From IMG/VR virus record IMGVR_UViG_2563366944_000005: 23,570 nt of DNA. The stretch is one strand, 5' to 3'. Numbering within the stretch: the stretch's first letter is position 1; each line of letters opens with the position of its first letter. The notes beneath the pieces were generated by a model. It worked only from the letters and a program-made list of their open reading frames with translations. It did no database searches and was not told where the DNA came from. A program made the translations under genes and the position numbers. Positions 12,935-20,026 of the stretch are shown here, piece after piece. The stretch comes from a virus. Lineage: Duplodnaviria > Heunggongvirae > Uroviricota > Caudoviricetes.

Positions 12935-13222
12935 TCAGAGAATGCGTTTGACCGCCTCGCTATATACTTCCGAGCGTTCTCTTTTCCCAACAGAAATCAC
13001 GAAAACGACAACTTTCTCGTCTATAACCTGGTATACAAGGCGATAGCCTGAAGACCGGAGCTTAATCTTGTAACAATCAGGCATACCACGGAGCTTGTTT
13101 GCTTCAATCCGGGGTGACTCAAGTACTTCAACCAGCTTCTTTTTCAACTGTTCACGTACCGTCGAGCCCAGCTTTCGCCATTCCTTTAGTGCCCGCTCGT
13201 CAAAATCCAGAAAATACGCCAT
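12935..13222 (-). CDS. relE: RelE mRNA interferase toxin (95 aa)
   Basis: Track ORF MAYFLDFDERALKEWRKLGSTVREQLKKKLVEVLESPRIEANKLRGMPDCYKIKLRSSGYRLVYQVIDEKVVVFVISVGKRERSEVY...; ATGA overlap with relB stop. Confidence 0.9.
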   Translation of the reverse strand: MAYFLDFDERALKEWRKLGSTVREQLKKKLVEVLESPRIEANKLRGMPDCYKIKLRSSGYRLVYQVIDEKVVVFVISVGKRERSEVYSEAVKRIL

Positions 13223-13461
13223 CAGAGTTCATCCAGCGTCACACGTACTGGCTTAGGATTACGAAGCCGTTCTTTCACTATCTCCACAAGTTCAGCATCT
13301 TCATCACTCAGGAGTGTCTGTTTGAACGGCAAGCGTTCATTGTCAGCGATATACTCGAGCATGAGACGAAGCGCTTCAGAAGGAGTTACACCCATTTTTT
13401 CAAGCGCGGCGTAAGAACGCGCTTTAAGTTCATCGTCAATACGCAGGTTAATGCTACCCAT
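13222..13461 (-). CDS. relB: RelB antitoxin (79 aa)
   Basis: Track ORF MGSINLRIDDELKARSYAALEKMGVTPSEALRLMLEYIADNERLPFKQTLLSDEDAELVEIVKERLRNPKPVRVTLDEL. Confidence 0.9.
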   Translation of the reverse strand: MGSINLRIDDELKARSYAALEKMGVTPSEALRLMLEYIADNERLPFKQTLLSDEDAELVEIVKERLRNPKPVRVTLDEL

Positions 13462-13469
13462 GTCTTACA

Positions 13470-13500
13470 CCTCTTGTAATTACAAATGTCATTACAAGTA
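13470..13500 (-). promoter_or_regulatory. relBE promoter/operator (relO-like dyad)
   Basis: cTTGTAATTACAAatgtcATTACAAg: palindromic TGTAATTACA plus a repeated TTACAA half-site immediately upstream of relB. Confidence 0.6.
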
Positions 13501-13791
13501 TCGCACTACAACATGCTTAGGGCAAGTCACGAAGGAAGTCAGAAAGTAGTCGTAAGAACGGTGATCACTGTCCGCTTTGTGCCAGGAGCAGCCATTGCTA
13601 AGTCCATCCTGTATTGTGCAGGTCAGCTCGTTTTTAAAGAGTCCGGCCATCATCTTACTGGTACAGACACCATATACTTTGTGACGGTCAGGCTACATAT
13701 GCACAACTCAACTTATTCATCTATTTTTTGCTTTAGCATGTCAGTGTTGCTTTCTCGTCGGCGGGTGAGCGGTGACCTGACCTGTCGATAA
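13486..13791 (+). CDS. ydfV: ydfV-like ORF (101 aa), doubtful coding status
   Basis: Track ORF; no SD; Cys- and Ser-rich, odd composition; overlaps the relB promoter. Confidence 0.3.
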   Translation: MSLQVSHYNMLRASHEGSQKVVVRTVITVRFVPGAAIAKSILYCAGQLVFKESGHHLTGTDTIYFVTVRLHMHNSTYSSIFCFSMSVLLSRRRVSGDLTCR

Positions 13792-13943
13792 AGGAACGTA
13801 ACACGTTTTATGCAACACCCGCATGCGGCAGAAAATTATTGCCGAACGTTTACCCCTGTCAACAAGCTTTACTTTCTGAGGCGCGCCAGCCCGCGAGGAA
13901 AACAATCTGAACATCAAACAATTAATGACACAAGAAATACGAT

Positions 13944-13970
13944 TAAAGATTTTTTTGTGCATGCCGATAG
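13944..13970 (+). promoter_or_regulatory. sigma-28 (FliA) type promoter upstream of flxA
   Basis: TAAAGATT, 11 nt, GCCGATAG compared with the recalled consensus TAAAGTTT-N11-GCCGATAA; about 24 nt before the flxA SD GGAGA. Confidence 0.6.
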
Positions 13971-13993
13971 TGCTTTTTTAAAAGGAGAAATCT

Positions 13994-14326
13994 ATGTCTG
14001 TCACAATTCAGGGAAATACCTCAACCGTTATTTCAAACAACTCCGCCCCGGAAGGAACATCAGAAATAGCCAAAATCACAAGACAAATTCAGGTGCTGAC
14101 TGAAAAGCTTGGGAAAATCTCATCGGAAGAGGGGATGACGACACAGCAGAAAAAAGAAATGGCTGCATTGGTACAGAAGCAAATTGAAAGCCTCTGGGCT
14201 CAACTGGAGCAGTTGTTAAGGCAGCAGGCAGAGAAAAAGAATGAAGACGCGACAGTTCAGCCTGATAAAAAAGAAGAGAAAAAAGACGATACAAATACCG
14301 CTGGCACCATTGATATTTACGTCTAA
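13994..14326 (+). CDS. flxA: FlxA (110 aa)
   Basis: Track ORF; ATG with AAGGAGA SD; coiled-coil, Lys/Glu/Gln-rich. Confidence 0.85.
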   Translation: MSVTIQGNTSTVISNNSAPEGTSEIAKITRQIQVLTEKLGKISSEEGMTTQQKKEMAALVQKQIESLWAQLEQLLRQQAEKKNEDATVQPDKKEEKKDDTNTAGTIDIYV

Positions 14327-14337
14327 GTGACAGCCGT

Positions 14338-14368
14338 ATTGTGGCCCTCATCGGGCCACTTTTCGCCA
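14338..14368 (+). terminator. rho-independent terminator after flxA
   Basis: GTGGCCC-tcatc-GGGCCAC followed by TTTT. Confidence 0.6.
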
Positions 14369-14674
14369 TCAGCCTTTTCTTTAAAGACATATTATCTTTG
14401 TATCATTTCTGATAGTTAACATTACAAGATATAAGTAATGGACGCACTCCCAATTAGTCTATTTAAATCGCCACGAGTTTAACTGACAACCCATGATCAA
14501 TTATGAATTGCAACTATTTCTGTAGTCACTTTTGTGGGGACAGTCCACAAAACTGCCAACTTCCGCTTCTTGCTCTTAGCGGACATTAGCATAGGCTATT
14601 TACCATAACGCCTCATTACGCGCACCGCCCAGACTGACTCAGCGCGTTTCTGGCATATCCCCGGTAAAACAAGT

Positions 14675-16130
14675 AACAAACCACCCGAAAATGAACACCA
14701 GAAACGCGACTTAAGAATCTACCCTATGAATGGATATGCACTCAACCGAATCGATCTTGGTTTCAATCTTTTTTATCGGGATCAGGCTTCTTTTTAGGTA
14801 ACTTCGGGGGCTTAACTTGCTGATGACTTTGCGTTCGGCGCGTAAGCCAGGGATGGTCAGCTTTAGGTTTAACATAGTATTTTGAGCGTAAATCAATACG
14901 GGCATTATCCACTCGTTCATGGACACTCTTTTCATCATCCAGTGGTATAGGCTCCGGGCCATCAACATACTTTTCCCAGCCCAGCGCTTTCCCGTCATAC
15001 AGAACGTTAATTTCACCGTCAAAGTTCTCGCATACAGTAACAACCGAATGCCTAAGTCGATATCCCCGGCCCTCACTGCGTACCTGAAACGCACTGCTTT
15101 TGTACTGGAAAGTGAGATTTTTAGACAGAACGCGCTTCGCCTGTAGGCTGAAGATATAACCCAGTTCCTCTTCAGAATGGTGCACATCAAGATGAGCATT
15201 ATCAGTAGTACGAGGCGACGTAGCGAACCGGTTGTTATAGGCTTCAATAAAGGTCGGCAACCATGCATTTGCTGTTTCAATATCACTGATATTCTGAAGC
15301 CGCATTTCTTTGACCAGCCTGTCCTGTAGTGTCTGATTGGCGCGCTCTACCCGCCCTTTTGCCTGCGGGCTGTTGGCATGGATTGGCTCGATGCCCAGTG
15401 TCTTTATCGCACGAGTGAACTGGGTCAGCTCACCTTCCCGCTCTGGGTTATTTACCCTGAATATACTGTGTCTATCAGAGTAGAGAGCGAGCGGTACGCC
15501 ATGATCATTAAGGTAACCCCGGAGGGTTTCCATGTAAGCCCGGGTTGTTTCAGCAGGCACAAAACGCAACGCCATCAACGCACTGGTGGCATCATCAATG
15601 AAAACGATCAGTGTACATCTGGGGCCTCGATTTTCAAACCAGTCATGAGGTGAGCCATCAATCTGGATCAGTTCACCGTAAGATGGTCGTCGCATGCGGC
15701 GTTGATATATACGGGCAATTTTACGACGGCGTTCACGCCATAACCCCTCTTCTATCATCCACTTTCTGAGAGTTTCAACGGATAAAGATAAACCGTGTAT
15801 CTCGCGCAATTTTTCGCACGCAAACGTAGGTCCAAAATCAGCGTAACGGCCTTTGAGGAGTGAAATTACTGTTGCTCTGAATTCAGTAGAAAAGGAATTA
15901 TTAGGACGCTTTCCACGTCGGTGGGAAACCAGAGCAGAAGGCCCTTCATTTCTATACCGTTGCACCAGACGTTTAACCTGCCGAATAGAAATGCCAATGC
16001 GTGCCGCAGCTTGTTCCTGAATAATCTGAAGTCGGTGGAGTTCCTTATGACTCATCGTAACAGTCTCTTTGATCATGAAAAATCCCCCAGAGAATTGTCT
16101 GGGGACATTTTAGAATGGTTCAAAGGGGAC
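14675..16130 (-). mobile_element. insertion-sequence-like element (about 1.45 kb) carrying the transposase; ends approximate
   Basis: Imperfect inverted repeats: 14679-14693 aaccacccgaaaatg versus 16106-16120 cattttagaatggtt (CATTTTnGnnTGGTT core, roughly 75% over about 20 bp). Confidence 0.45.
14763..16076 (-). CDS. DDE transposase with integrase (rve-type) catalytic core and N-terminal HTH (437 aa)
   Basis: Track ORF; ATG with GGGGG SD; candidate D/D/E residues in LIVFIDDATS, ALYSDRHSIF, GRVERANQTL; HTH IGISIRQVKRLVQRY; IS family not assigned. Confidence 0.85.
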   Translation of the reverse strand: MIKETVTMSHKELHRLQIIQEQAAARIGISIRQVKRLVQRYRNEGPSALVSHRRGKRPNNSFSTEFRATVISLLKGRYADFGPTFACEKLREIHGLSLSVETLRKWMIEEGLWRERRRKIARIYQRRMRRPSYGELIQIDGSPHDWFENRGPRCTLIVFIDDATSALMALRFVPAETTRAYMETLRGYLNDHGVPLALYSDRHSIFRVNNPEREGELTQFTRAIKTLGIEPIHANSPQAKGRVERANQTLQDRLVKEMRLQNISDIETANAWLPTFIEAYNNRFATSPRTTDNAHLDVHHSEEELGYIFSLQAKRVLSKNLTFQYKSSAFQVRSEGRGYRLRHSVVTVCENFDGEINVLYDGKALGWEKYVDGPEPIPLDDEKSVHERVDNARIDLRSKYYVKPKADHPWLTRRTQSHQQVKPPKLPKKKPDPDKKD

Positions 16131-16410
16131 ATTACAGCTTGGTGTTAACAATAGCCTGCTTCTCCGTGCCTTTCGGCACGTAAGAGGCTAACCTACATGT
16201 GTCTAGCATGAAATTGGCCTCAGATTAATGTTAAGCGTCTTGCAGGACGCGTAATGTTAACTGGGGCTTTTCTCTATCTGCCGTTGGTGTCCATGCCCGA
16301 GGCAGATAGCCTCAAGCACCCGCAGTCATTCTACTTAACTAAGATTTCCCCGCAAACCGTTTTTGTCCAGCACAGTAAATATCCAACTAAACCAATGGAG
16401 TTCGCTGTAT

Positions 16411-16590
16411 TTACCGCCAGTATTCAATGCACATGACCGCCATGAACACCCCTAAAAAAAGGGCATTTATATATCCAAATATTAATATCAAAACATCAAC
16501 TTTTTCCATATACCTTGCTGTGAAGATGATGGGCATACATGATGCGAACAACCAGAACGCAACAAACAAAAACTGCAATGCGTTTTTCAT
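16411..16590 (-). CDS. small hydrophobic protein (59 aa, two predicted transmembrane helices)
   Basis: Track ORF 16411..16629 trimmed to the ATG at 16590 preceded by AGGAGG at 5 nt; MKNALQFLFVAFWLFASCMPIIF...VLILIFGYINALFLGVFMAVMCI. Confidence 0.5.
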   Translation of the reverse strand: MKNALQFLFVAFWLFASCMPIIFTARYMEKVDVLILIFGYINALFLGVFMAVMCIEYWR

Positions 16591-16844
16591 TATTCCTCCT
16601 ACAATCAATGTGCAATTACATTTAAACACACCTCAATTTGGCCGGACATATAAATATCTAAACCAGAAAAAATCACTTACATAGCGTTACAAACTCTTTA
16701 GTCTAAAGGTTCATCGTAAAACATTCCCCATACTTATCAGTCCGTTCCGCGCCAGGTAGCTCATTGCCTTATCTGGCAACCTGTAATCAGGTTTCCGCTT
16801 TTTCAGTTGGCTGGTCGTTTAACCGACATAGTTAATCCATTAAT

Positions 16845-17132
16845 CTAGTTGCCGGATGTTGGTGGATTTTCGCGTTTTAGTTGTTCATAAAAGTGCACAG
16901 CTTTAACCAGTTCTTCTGATGTAACGGGGACTGGTGAGGCAGTGAATAAGGCCTGAATTTGATAGTTCGGCCTGTCGTTACAATCCTCTTTTTTCGGTAC
17001 ATATTTCCAGTCACCAGACCACTACTTCCCCTGAAAGTCCGTAACGCCTTTTTTTACGTAGCGATATCGCCATGCCACTGGTTTTGCTTGCCCCGCCGTT
17101 TCATGCCCTTCCTGATAATTAATCTCGCTCAT
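16845..17132 (-). pseudogene. ORF interrupted by an in-frame amber codon (36 codons, TAG, 58 codons)
   Basis: Hand translation MSEINYQEGHETAGQAKPVAWRYRYVKKGVTDFQGK*WSGDWKYVPKKEDCNDRPNYQIQALFTASPVPVTSEELVKAVHFYEQLKRENPPTSGN*; TAG at about 17022-17024. Confidence 0.3.
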
Positions 17133-17742
17133 TCATCGCCCCACTCATCACAATATGCTTCGACCGGAGTTTTTCCCGCTTCATAGTCATCACGCTAGGA
17201 TTCGACATCAGCAGCACTTCCACCGCGTAACTCACCATAGTCCATTAATAGTTCATCCCGCTCTTCAAAACTGATGTTATATTTAGCTGAACAAAAATCA
17301 GCCACTTTGTGCTTCCTCATCGTCTTTTATTTCGTGGTATGAGTAATTGCAGTAGTTAAAGAAAATTTCTTATGCTCCGTCATGAATTTCCTCAGGTGTT
17401 GCGTCATCGTCCACTTCGAATACATCCTCAAAATCTCCACCAGCTATTCCCGTTTCAATAATAATTTTGAACTTTCGCATTTCACTACCGCCCTTTCGGG
17501 CGGCCTCCTGATGTTCTGAGGGTGCAGAAATCCATCCGGTTAAGGATTAAATTTTATTTACAGAACTGAATTTAATTATTCAGATATACGTATCTGTAGC
17601 CTTACGAATCTACTCACTGGATGCCTCTTTCATAAAAATAATCCAGTGGGTTTTATCGTTTTTTCCCTGTTCGTTGACAGATAACAGGTTTTCTGTCTGT
17701 CAGTGCCAGAATCTGGCTTACCGGTATTTGCGTTTCATTCCA

Positions 17743-18099
17743 TTAAAAAATCAGAACGCCGTGCGGCCTCAACACCCGAAAGGCTTCTTTAAATCTCTGT
17801 CGCGAATCATCACGCCAGGCATCTTTATTCAGCCGTCCATATTTCTTTCCCATCCAGGCGTTATCACCAACACTCTCAAGATGCGGAGGGTCTAATACAA
17901 CCATCGAAAAAGATGCGTCTGCAAATGATAATGCACGAAAATCTGCGATAATGTCAGGGCTGATAATCAAGCGTCTCCCATTGCGTAATGTGTATCCTTC
18001 TTTTCTGATATCGCTGAATATCGCCCGTTCGTCAGACTTATCGAACCAGAACATGCGGCTGCCACAGCACATATCAAGAATGGTTGCCGGTGCACTCAC
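17743..18099 (-). CDS. DNA methyltransferase-like N-terminal fragment (118 aa), probably truncated
   Basis: Track ORF with GTG start overlapping the upstream stop (GTGA); SAM-binding-like ILDMCCGS and DPPH motif; ends right after RVLRPHGVLIF with no continuation in any frame. Confidence 0.4.
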   Translation of the reverse strand: MSAPATILDMCCGSRMFWFDKSDERAIFSDIRKEGYTLRNGRRLIISPDIIADFRALSFADASFSMVVLDPPHLESVGDNAWMGKKYGRLNKDAWRDDSRQRFKEAFRVLRPHGVLIF

Positions 18100-18518
18100 T
18101 GCGCCACGTCCTGAAAATTACCCTGATAGAAAGCCAGTATGCGCTGCATAACTTCGCTCTTCCGGCACTCGCGACAGATTATGTTTAGGCGACTGTCGTA
18201 GCGACGTATTTCTCCGTCAGGTGATGACCAGATAAGGTCCGGATCAACCACAGCAGGTTTCTTCACCTTTGCCCTCGAGAGTTTTTTGCGGGCGTTTTGC
18301 CAGTCCTTACGCGCCTGTTCAGAGGGGAATAACCCGTAGCCGGAGTTGTATACATCGCCACTGGCTACCAGCTCTCTGGCAAGAACGCTCATCAGATATC
18401 TAGTCGCACCTGTTTTAGCTTCCAGTTGCCGTAACGTCTCACGGCCGCTCTGGCGCACGAGTTCCACCACCTGCCATTTAATTTTTTCCCGCTCTTCTTG
18501 TGTAAAAACTTTTGCCAC
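18096..18518 (-). CDS. hypothetical protein (140 aa), possible winged-helix DNA-binding protein
   Basis: Track ORF; GTG start preceded by AGGGGG; lies 40 nt downstream of the O-like gene. Confidence 0.55.
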   Translation of the reverse strand: MAKVFTQEEREKIKWQVVELVRQSGRETLRQLEAKTGATRYLMSVLARELVASGDVYNSGYGLFPSEQARKDWQNARKKLSRAKVKKPAVVDPDLIWSSPDGEIRRYDSRLNIICRECRKSEVMQRILAFYQGNFQDVAQ

Positions 18519-18558
18519 AAGTCCCCCTTAAAATTACCTCATGACCTGAAATCAACAC

Positions 18559-19524
18559 TTATCCTCTGAAACCAGGCGGAATTTCTGTATCCGGTTCAGA
18601 AATATGATTAACACAACGCTGTACAGGTGAACGTCCCAGGCGGATGACCAGTTCGTCCCATTTTTCGCGGAGCTTTGACGGGCTCATGATGTTTTTTACC
18701 CAGAATGGATCTCGCTGAACCCGACCAAACATTTCGCAAATTTGTCTGTGGCTTCTGCCATCCAGCATCCGCATTGTGCGCACGTCATTGGCCCAGGCAG
18801 TCCAGTTAGGCTCTTTTGGTCGCATGATCTCGCCATCATCACTGGCTGCCTGTTCGTAGAGACCCACGATCCGCCCCCAGATCCACTGCGCACACGCCAA
18901 ATCCTCCCTGCTACCCCACTGGCGTTTTTTCGCACTAAACACAACCGCGTCGGAGTTCCGGGTTAAAAAATCCTGTTCAGTCGTCTGCGGGTCCGGTTGC
19001 GAAGCTTCCGGACGAAAAGTGTTTTTATTCTCTGTAGTAATCTCTGTTGTATTCTCTGTAAGATCATCAGGCCATTTTGACCCGATGACATTGGGTCGTT
19101 TTGAACCAATGGAGCGTTTCATTTTGACCTCTTCCATCGTGTCATTTTGACCTGATGGAGCGGCGCATTTTGAACCGATGGATTCGCTCAATTTGCCACC
19201 ATCTAAAAGCTCGCTCCCATAGTTGATCGTGTAGAAATTGGTCATATCGCGCTTTGATTTATTGAGCTTTTCACAACGCAAAAGCCCCAGCGTTTTCAGA
19301 CTTGCAAACGCGCGCTTTAACGTTGACTCTGACCAGAATGGGAACTGTTCCAGCCATTGTTCCGTTGTGTTATAAATCCAGCGAACACCATCACATTCCA
19401 TGCCGGAGTTGGTATCTCTCAACCAGTAGTGCAGTTGTTGCAAAACAATGGCTTCGTTTAAGCCAATTTTCATTGCCAGCTGCGTGTTTATAACCAGTGG
19501 GCGTTCAGCAAAAAGAAGGCTCAT
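18559..19524 (-). CDS. replication initiator / replisome organizer (O-like); about 321 aa from the first ATG
   Basis: Track ORF 18559..19578 begins at TTG; N-terminal DNA-binding-like region; central repeated IGSK motifs encoded by iterons. Confidence 0.75.
   Translation of the reverse strand: MSLLFAERPLVINTQLAMKIGLNEAIVLQQLHYWLRDTNSGMECDGVRWIYNTTEQWLEQFPFWSESTLKRAFASLKTLGLLRCEKLNKSKRDMTNFYTINYGSELLDGGKLSESIGSKCAAPSGQNDTMEEVKMKRSIGSKRPNVIGSKWPDDLTENTTEITTENKNTFRPEASQPDPQTTEQDFLTRNSDAVVFSAKKRQWGSREDLACAQWIWGRIVGLYEQAASDDGEIMRPKEPNWTAWANDVRTMRMLDGRSHRQICEMFGRVQRDPFWVKNIMSPSKLREKWDELVIRLGRSPVQRCVNHISEPDTEIPPGFRG
19070..19195. repeat. origin-like iteron array inside the O-like gene (5 direct repeats at about 23-24 bp spacing)
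   Basis: cATTTTGAcCCGATGa / gTTTTGAaCCAATGGA / cATTTTGAcCtcttcc / cATTTTGAcCTGATGGA / cATTTTGAaCCGATGGA starting near 19073, 19097, 19120, 19143, 19167; AT-rich TCTCTGT-repeat stretch at 19030-19060. Confidence 0.65.
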
Positions 19525-20026
19525 AATTCCATCCAGCTTTTTGTTGGTATTGCTGTCGATACGCAAGTTTGAAAGCAATTGCTTTTTCTATAAGTTCGTC
19601 AGTTTCACGATCCACTACGGCAGGATCAGCAAAAAGCAGTCCGGACTCCACCACATCGCCATATTCTTTGTTTAACCCGGCGATCATGCACGTGATGCTT
19701 TTTCCGTCAGTAATTTCACGATACAACCTGAAATCATTAATCCGGATAGCCTCCATAATTGCAGGCACTAGCGCCGTGAACTTTTCACGCTTATCCCTGG
19801 TGTCGATAGCCTTCCAGCGTTCAAATATCTTCACTCGATTAACGCCAAGCGCTCGCTGATCAATCGCGCCACCTTCATATGTGACACGCTGAACATCGAT
19901 GTTCGGGCGCTCTTTCAAAGCCCAGAATGCTTCAGTGATTAATATCGTCGCCTGCTCCTGTGTCATTCCTGGTCGACATATCCAGGCATCCAGAGCCTCA
20001 CGAGCCTGTTCAGGAGTGATTTTCAT
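19505..20026 (-). CDS. hypothetical regulatory protein in the cII position (173 aa); possibly YdaT-family
   Basis: Track ORF; ATG start; overlaps dicC 3' end by 17 nt and the O-like gene start. Confidence 0.6.
   Translation of the reverse strand: MKITPEQAREALDAWICRPGMTQEQATILITEAFWALKERPNIDVQRVTYEGGAIDQRALGVNRVKIFERWKAIDTRDKREKFTALVPAIMEAIRINDFRLYREITDGKSITCMIAGLNKEYGDVVESGLLFADPAVVDRETDELIEKAIAFKLAYRQQYQQKAGWNYEPSFC

Follow-up and report, generated by a model that had tools for sequence, protein, structure and literature searches.

The window, by which we mean the whole 23,570-nt stretch of viral DNA analysed here, is a Qin-type lambdoid prophage of E. coli. On the minus strand the gene order begins with dicC, a ydaT-like gene, replication gene O, a DUF977 gene, a methyltransferase gene and two decayed genes, reaches a short open reading frame that we call ORF59, continues with a 437-aa ISNCY-like transposase ORF, flxA and ydfV (on the opposite strand), relBE and hokD, and ends with rem, ydfU and the Q antiterminator gene ydfT. 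The lysis genes essD/ydfR/rrrQ/rzpQ correspond to ~6.6–8.25 kb of the window. ORF59 is located in the nin region, between the replication genes and Q, and is co-oriented with the early-right operon. The preliminary description placed it alone between an insertion sequence and a decayed region. The upstream half of that picture holds, as a decayed nin-region gene with a frameshift and an internal stop (16711..17132, minus strand), of which intact 104–129-aa versions exist in other prophages, and a DUF7167 pseudogene precede it. The downstream half does not, since the next 260 nt carry the promoter, leader and mok start of a hok/sok locus together with its Sok RNA, and the transposase-like gene begins only past this segment. 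That gene (14763-16076, minus strand) is an uninterrupted 437-aa transposase ORF of the HTH plus rve type, and the K-12 protein ‘YdfW’ is exactly its last 49 residues. A 4.8-kb deletion has removed window positions 14948-19746 from K-12 MG1655, so that the ydfW remnant now abuts ydfX/dicC and ORF59 is missing. Because K-12 deleted the gene, small-protein surveys of that strain could not find it.

ORF59 occupies 16411..16590 on the minus strand and consists of 59 codons and a stop, with its ATG at 16590 and its TAA at 16413-16411; the assignment draws on the sequence, comparison with a paralog, dN/dS and AlphaFold2 (AF2). Both the frame and the translation first proposed for it are exactly right. 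Its GC content is 37%, against 46% for the window. The Shine-Dalgarno (SD) sequence AGGAGG is present as described, at 16600..16595 on the minus strand, but the spacing to the ATG had been called ideal and is only 4 nt (AATA). A spacer of that length is at the short end of the working range in E. coli, usable rather than ideal. The pattern AGGAGG-N3-9-ATG occurs 3 times in the window versus 0.93 expected, and 9 of 100 shuffled sequences reach 3; since the motif is so common by chance, the SD alone is weak evidence for a gene. It is also polymorphic, reading AGGGGG in 6 of 30 haplotypes. These are haplotypes with M37/H40, states common to the paralog, so the consensus AGGAGG of the window is probably the derived state.

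A 120-nt, nearly invariant leader (16591..16710, minus strand) begins directly after the stop codon of the upstream gene (TGA, 16711-16713) and is a possible promoter and 5′ UTR. A promoter scan found no σ70 consensus promoter upstream of ORF59, and structure prediction around the leader and SD gave no unusual RNA fold (z = 0.11) and none that would mask the SD.

Distribution and a paralogous subfamily

A search of 5426 complete E. coli genomes detected ORF59 in 1567, of which 1555 cover 80% or more of its length, and the listed records spread down the ranking differ by no more than 3 nt in 180. The remaining ~71% of genomes, K-12 included, are without it. RefSeq/PGAP annotates no feature under ORF59 in any of the matches listed, and many GenBank assemblies give it as a hypothetical protein of either 59 or 72 aa, the latter being UniProt A0A1Q9L2W4. 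We rejected the GTG start of the 72-aa form: its GAGG lies only 1 nt upstream of the GTG, a stop closes the upstream frame in the paralog, and the two proteins align from the ATG, the position at which the paralog begins. Three deposited phage genome records, at least one of them named as derived from ECOR13, also contain ORF59, and all three annotate the opposite strand (as a hypothetical protein, in two cases as ‘hornerin’).

The gene is often broken. IS1 lies within ORF59 in at least 8 complete E. coli genomes, and truncated or chimeric forms are frequent. In strain MB57 the IS1 insertion is flanked by a 9-bp target duplication at 16489-16497, and matches in two pieces suggest the same insertion in at least 7 other complete genomes. 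In E. coli ECMA0423 (locus L088, 3900-4600) there are many substitutions and indels in ORF59, the SD and the hok leader, next to an intact hokD (51 aa); this copy is either old and decayed or part of a locally error-rich assembly. As judged from these genomes, ORF59 is a dispensable accessory gene of E. coli and Shigella lambdoid prophages.

It is not the orphan it was taken for. A HMMER search of 1.84 billion representative proteins returned a single distant relative, a 59-aa paralog (P0042, UniProt A0A2S5RMW9) that aligns with ORF59 end-to-end and without gaps at 41% identity. By this comparison the two constitute an unnamed family with two subfamilies, A (ORF59) and B (the paralog); profile, genome, viral and metagenome searches turned up neither a third subfamily nor relatives outside E. 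coli and Shigella. The paralog is found in 1045 of the 5426 complete genomes, including ST131, Nissle 1917, NC101 and clone D, is at least 99% identical in 1038 of the 1045, and is unannotated among the RefSeq matches listed. In B2-type strains it occupies the Rac attachment region, on a decayed island with ttcA on one side and uspF on the other, where its neighbours are an integrase fragment and fragments of an ABC-3 (sit-like) permease. In one such island (locus L093, 2984-5169), a decayed prophage remnant with a C-terminal integrase fragment and ABC-3 permease fragments, the intact paralog lies at 4001-4180 and a 62-nt hok 3′ remnant at 4235-4296. This remnant of the hok CDS, 55 nt past the paralog stop, is 81% identical to hokD (E = 1e-11). 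About 70 nt upstream of the paralog is an apparent extended -10 element, TGATATAAT, noted by eye and not scored by the promoter scan. The persistence of the paralog amid fragmentary neighbours argues for a role that would be independent and non-lethal.

A hok/sok locus in two pieces

The segment between ORF59 and the transposase gene is the 5′ half of a hokD-type hok/sok locus, comprising the hok mRNA leader and the start of mok (16151..16321, minus strand). The Rfam family RF01794 (sok/hok-leader) matches 16321..16150 at 104 bits (E 1.4e-23), above its gathering score of 59, the mok ATG is at 16209, and the hok leader is truncated at 16151. The spacer between the ORF59 stop and the leader (16322..16410, minus strand) contains a putative hok promoter, and in an alignment with the hokW cassette of phage 933W homology starts near 16360. 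Its hexamers, TTGCGG at 16357..16352 and TAGAAT at 16334..16329, were picked out by eye and missed by the promoter scan. From the hok -35 region on, the leader is ~97% identical (by eye) to that of 933W hokW. A Sok antisense RNA is predicted on the plus strand at 16201..16272 from homology to the annotated sokW of 933W. We did not adopt the Rfam strand for Sok, as the sok match falls on the hok-sense strand and the 933W homology puts the true Sok on the plus strand. An antisense RNA near ORF59 had been suggested as something to look for; one does adjoin it, but it is Sok, and it belongs to hok and not to ORF59.

The displaced 3′ half of the locus is the hokD (relF) coding sequence at 12708..12863 on the minus strand. 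Homology to genomes in which hokD follows ORF59 stops at 16151 and resumes at 12877, just before the hokD ATG. Between the hok leader and the start of hokD lies a 3,274-bp block (12877..16150) that contains the transposase ORF (14763-16076), flxA, ydfV, relB and relE, and a perfect 15-nt direct repeat, ATAGCCTGCTTCTCC, bounds it at 12862-12876 and 16151-16165. The leader/Sok element, the mok frame and the hok coding sequence that define a hok/sok locus are all there, so the locus is present but split, and the window keeps its promoter, leader, mok start and Sok (16151-16360) 3.3 kb from hokD. hokD is co-transcribed with relBE as relF (PMC3598666). The split, with the 3,274-bp block between the two halves, seems to record how hokD/relF became third in the relBE operon.

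Three observations on hok loci stand apart from this. Just 3′ of hokD, where the fold-back region at the 3′ end of the hok mRNA is expected, there is a weak isrK-like Rfam match (12618-12699, minus strand; 25 bits against a gathering score of 50) that is probably not significant. In phage mEp460_ev081 (locus L143, 1197-1289) an unrelated 30-aa hydrophobic ORF with a GTG start, MVLVLKCALAITAVMAIYCLAIVLMDRLSD, ends just upstream of the hok promoter, and one may ask whether prophage hok loci repeatedly have small hydrophobic ORFs upstream of them. Lastly, PP818812.1, the record of Actinobacillus phage vB_Apl-pPE4, encodes at 13401-13553 a HokD that is 100% identical to the E. coli protein; Actinobacillus pleuropneumoniae, to which this phage is attributed, is an odd host for it, and this suggests E. 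coli-derived sequence or a very recent transfer.

In ATCC 25922, AVS0973, clone D i14 and phage vB_EcoS-640R1, an intact hokD lies ~258 nt past the ORF59 stop. Among 104 informative subfamily-A loci, 56 have hokD directly downstream, 47 have the Qin-type junction and one is different. In these alignments ORF59 and the hokD-type hok/sok cassette make up a recurrent mosaic module of ~0.9 kb, of which ORF59 is the upstream half and its 120-nt leader the left edge. As the paralog also has a hok remnant downstream, the linkage of ORF59 with hok predates the split between the subfamilies.

A role of ORF59 in modulating Hok, for example as an early membrane ‘immunity’ against premature Hok killing in lytic growth, would explain this ancestral linkage. 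The synteny in 103 of the 104 subfamily-A loci and the hok remnant 55 nt past the paralog fit such a role, as do the movement of ORF59 and hok as one mosaic block and the inner-membrane location of Hok, which is predicted for ORF59 also. But identical or near-identical hok cassettes without ORF59 are found in 933W, mEp460, PPompW and P1-like phages, which means that ORF59 is not part of the minimal hok/sok unit, and of 80 phage records with hok just 3 contain it. Moreover, the paralog outlived its hok, and the Qin arrangement has hokD 3.3 kb away in the relBE operon. We therefore consider a Hok-linked role highly improbable. The passages retrieved from a recent preprint surveying Hok make no mention of a partner upstream of hok. 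A more ambitious version, in which ORF59 and its paralog would be a new hok/sok-coupled family of phage membrane proteins that provide anti-Hok immunity or a trigger for Hok timing and are diversifying in phage–phage or phage–host conflict, strikes us as improbable.

Coding evidence and selection

That ORF59 is a real, translated gene is likely, on the strength of its comparison with the paralog. The two coding sequences share 59% nucleotide identity and keep the same start and stop with no indel between them, whereas their flanks align only with gaps. In the ORF59 frame the Nei–Gojobori estimates are pN 0.34 and pS 0.72 (corrected dN/dS ~0.2); in the other five frames pS is about equal to pN or at most ~1.6 times as large, and none of these frames is free of stop codons in both copies. 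When 73 random substitutions were simulated, the frame stayed open in only 2.6% of cases, and GRAVY dropped to 0.68 ± 0.38 versus the 1.37 of the paralog. T at the second codon position is kept in 25 of 31 codons. Depending on the alignment, 19–21 columns are invariant between the subfamilies, among them W13, S17, C18, P20, I21, I22, T24, L36, F38, G39, N42, A43, E56, W58 and R59, and a ladder of small residues, G39xxxA43xxxG47 (GxxxAxxxG), is conserved in both.

Within the subfamilies the pattern is a different one. The proportion of segregating sites is 2.8% in ORF59, 8% in the 100 nt upstream of the SD (16700-16601) and 17.5% in the hok leader. The 120-nt leader and ORF59 together are less variable than either flank, and the leader is near-invariant also in sequences with a visibly more divergent upstream gene (about 75% as judged by eye). 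All 10 of the variant sites within subfamilies are non-synonymous (A16V, V31I, I37M, Y40H, L44I, M53T and Y57C in subfamily A; M6V, S11N and A31V in subfamily B), with P ~0.03 under neutrality, and a McDonald–Kreitman-type Fisher test gives p = 0.028. Gene conversion from the paralog is not the source of I37M and Y40H, as the intervening silent difference at ORF position 117 was not co-converted. With every polymorphism non-synonymous there is no sign of recent purifying selection, and we read the two time scales as long-term purifying selection that may now be relaxed or diversifying in mostly cryptic prophages.

The lack of synonymous polymorphism (10 to 0) would equally suit an incidental, non-functional ORF in a T-rich, AT-rich spacer that hitch-hikes with hok/sok, its uniformity being the product of recent horizontal spread and the open frame of the paralog a matter of luck. 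So would the IS1 insertions and a frameshifted copy, the silence of PGAP among the matches listed and of the promoter scan, the expectation of about one SD-plus-ATG motif per window by chance, and the lack of detected relatives beyond E. coli and Shigella. Luck is strained, though, by an open frame of the same length at 59% nucleotide identity (P ~0.026) that has also kept its hydrophobicity, by a synonymous excess confined to the ORF59 frame, and by indels that fall in the flanks and never in the ORF. Polar and small residues are conserved at fixed positions in what is the most hydrophobic ORF of the window. Together these make an incidental ORF rather unlikely.

Still less can be said for the 85-aa ORF on the other strand (16427-16684, plus strand). 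It is annotated in phage records PV340562, ON470612 and ON470619 (in an 83-aa version), and its frame is open in subfamily A. In the paralog, however, the frame has stop codons, there is no synonymous excess in it, and the protein is an N/K/T-rich mirror image of the hydrophobic frame with no family match. The chance that it is a real gene seems to us vanishingly small, and the annotation is almost certainly a mis-call.

Predicted hairpin and possible roles

The strong hydrophobicity first noted for ORF59 is borne out: with a GRAVY of 1.27 it tops the 94 ATG-initiated ORFs of at least 50 aa in the window, the runner-up having 0.90. AlphaFold2, run on a nine-sequence alignment, predicts helices at residues 2-26 and 28-58 with a mean pLDDT of 74. 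By hydropathy and AF2 the helices span residues 2-58 and leave no tail, the C-terminus being only EYWR. A five-residue loop joins the two hydrophobic helices, within which sit the conserved small and polar residues. Both subfamilies have positive charge at the N-terminus (K2 or R2/K3) and a loop with a net charge of 0 or -2, a pattern that fits a predicted N-in/C-in hairpin. The comparative evidence and the AF2 model thus support the original reading of this locus in the early region of the prophage as a gene for a small membrane protein of two helices.

Searches for a family of known function were uninformative. Pfam has no match to ORF59 at E ≤ 10, PHROGs, NCBIfam and PADLOC have nothing above cut-off for the family, and a profile search of the PDB with ORF59 gave 0 matches. 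Foldseek against viral structures (BFVD) retrieved generic hairpins, membrane proteins and holins, none of them significant (best E = 0.94). A match of the paralog to TIGR03647 was dismissed as generic transmembrane similarity, since it is below threshold (14.5 bits versus a cut-off of 26), and a relationship of ORF59 to Hok was dismissed on an hhalign probability of 1.3% against HokD and the lack of a Pfam Hok/Gef match. Literature searches with ORF59 peptides and the UniProt identifiers found no paper.

We infer translation, topology, oligomerisation and function along the following lines. ORF59 would be a 59-residue helical hairpin inserted in the inner membrane, its short ends both facing the cytoplasm, and the hairpin would pack or oligomerise through S17-C18-x-P20, G39xxxA43xxxG47 and N42. 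Rather than a classical toxin, it would be a membrane effector that does not kill the cell, acting for instance by blocking the entry of superinfecting phage DNA or by modulating a host membrane protein. A genuine accessory prophage gene for such a hairpin effector is the best explanation overall, and we advance it tentatively. If the gene is real, we favour exclusion or modulation as its predicted role, at a little short of an even chance, over a toxin, which is doubtful, and over a Hok-modulating factor in third place, which is improbable.

A membrane-damaging toxin, of the type I, GhoT or ‘kil’ kind, would depolarise the inner membrane through an oligomeric glycine-zipper pore, and would be expressed on prophage induction or silenced by an unrecognised antisense RNA. 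ORF59 is small and very hydrophobic, with a strong SD and the conserved GxxxAxxxG; it adjoins the hok and relBE toxin modules; and its frequent disruption by IS1, like its truncated and chimeric forms, might fit a costly gene. What such a toxin would need in order to be held in check is missing from the locus. There is no antitoxin gene, and apart from Sok, which is that of hok, no Rfam antisense RNA covers ORF59 or its leader at E ≤ 1; nor did the scan find an antisense promoter, and no structure masks the SD (z = 0.11). We also considered an antisense RNA ending at a terminator-like hairpin at 16778-16793 and discarded it, as the hairpin is not conserved in other prophages. The protein has neither similarity to Hok (hhalign 1.3%) nor a PADLOC match. 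The paralog, with its apparent extended -10 and no partner gene, reaches 99% identity or more in 1038 of the 1045 genomes that have it. It is retained in a decayed island, where a potent toxin that has a strong SD but lacks an antidote would not easily persist, and it is for this reason that we favour a non-lethal effector. Taken together, the evidence leans away from ORF59 as a potent toxin, and we regard the toxin reading as distinctly unlikely.

Known small membrane proteins of phages and their hosts resemble ORF59 in part. T4 Imm, HK97 gp15 and P22 SieA/SieB are short hydrophobic exclusion proteins with one to a few transmembrane helices, and superinfection-exclusion proteins are dispensable phage or prophage accessory genes that are retained in lysogens. 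ORF59 is likewise short, hydrophobic and dispensable, and its rapid amino-acid change would fit a role in conflict. It is smaller, though, with almost no sequence outside the membrane, and its family has no detectable homology to a described exclusion protein in PHROGs, PADLOC, Pfam, NCBIfam or the BFVD Foldseek search. With Hok/Gef (hokD/relF) it shares a length of ~50–60 aa, the prophage module and orientation, a strong SD and a (predicted) place in the inner membrane. Hok/Gef proteins have one transmembrane helix and a periplasmic C-terminal domain with a conserved Cys, whereas ORF59 has two predicted helices and no tail; unlike hok, it has no mok-type leader ORF, and neither a fold-back mRNA nor a cognate antisense RNA was detected for it.

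GhoT, other two-helix toxins and class II holins such as S21 are proteins of ~57–70 aa with N-in/C-in topology and glycine-zipper-like motifs. ORF59 is similar to GhoT and S21 in size, in its two predicted transmembrane helices and predicted N-in/C-in arrangement, and in its small-residue packing motif. It differs from class II holins in its position outside the lysis cassette, which spans about 7.1–8.25 kb of the window, in lacking a charged C-terminal tail and in having no PHROG holin match, and from GhoT in having no adjacent antitoxin such as GhoS. Its genomic habits are those of lambdoid morons and nin cassettes: it is low in GC, present or absent among related phages, bordered by mosaic junctions and placed between conserved early genes. 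The scan did not find the promoter and terminator of its own that define a moron, and its cassette differs in being composite (ORF59 plus hok/sok).

ORF59 is probably an unstudied small membrane-protein gene of a familiar prophage accessory kind and not a new system. The claim is a modest one, of an annotation gap in thousands of genomes, with no hint so far of a surprising mechanism. What the window does reveal is the missing 5′ half of the hokD locus, and with it an explanation for the third place of hokD in the relBE operon. Should ORF59 be a real gene, ~29% (subfamily A) and ~19% (subfamily B) of the complete E. coli genomes in the search would have a small membrane-protein gene that is unannotated in RefSeq among the matches listed; ATCC 8739, ATCC 25922, ST131, O104:H4 and Nissle 1917 are among the reference and clinical strains concerned. 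K-12 provides a natural null background for ORF59, which would join the short list of candidate small membrane effectors of prophages.
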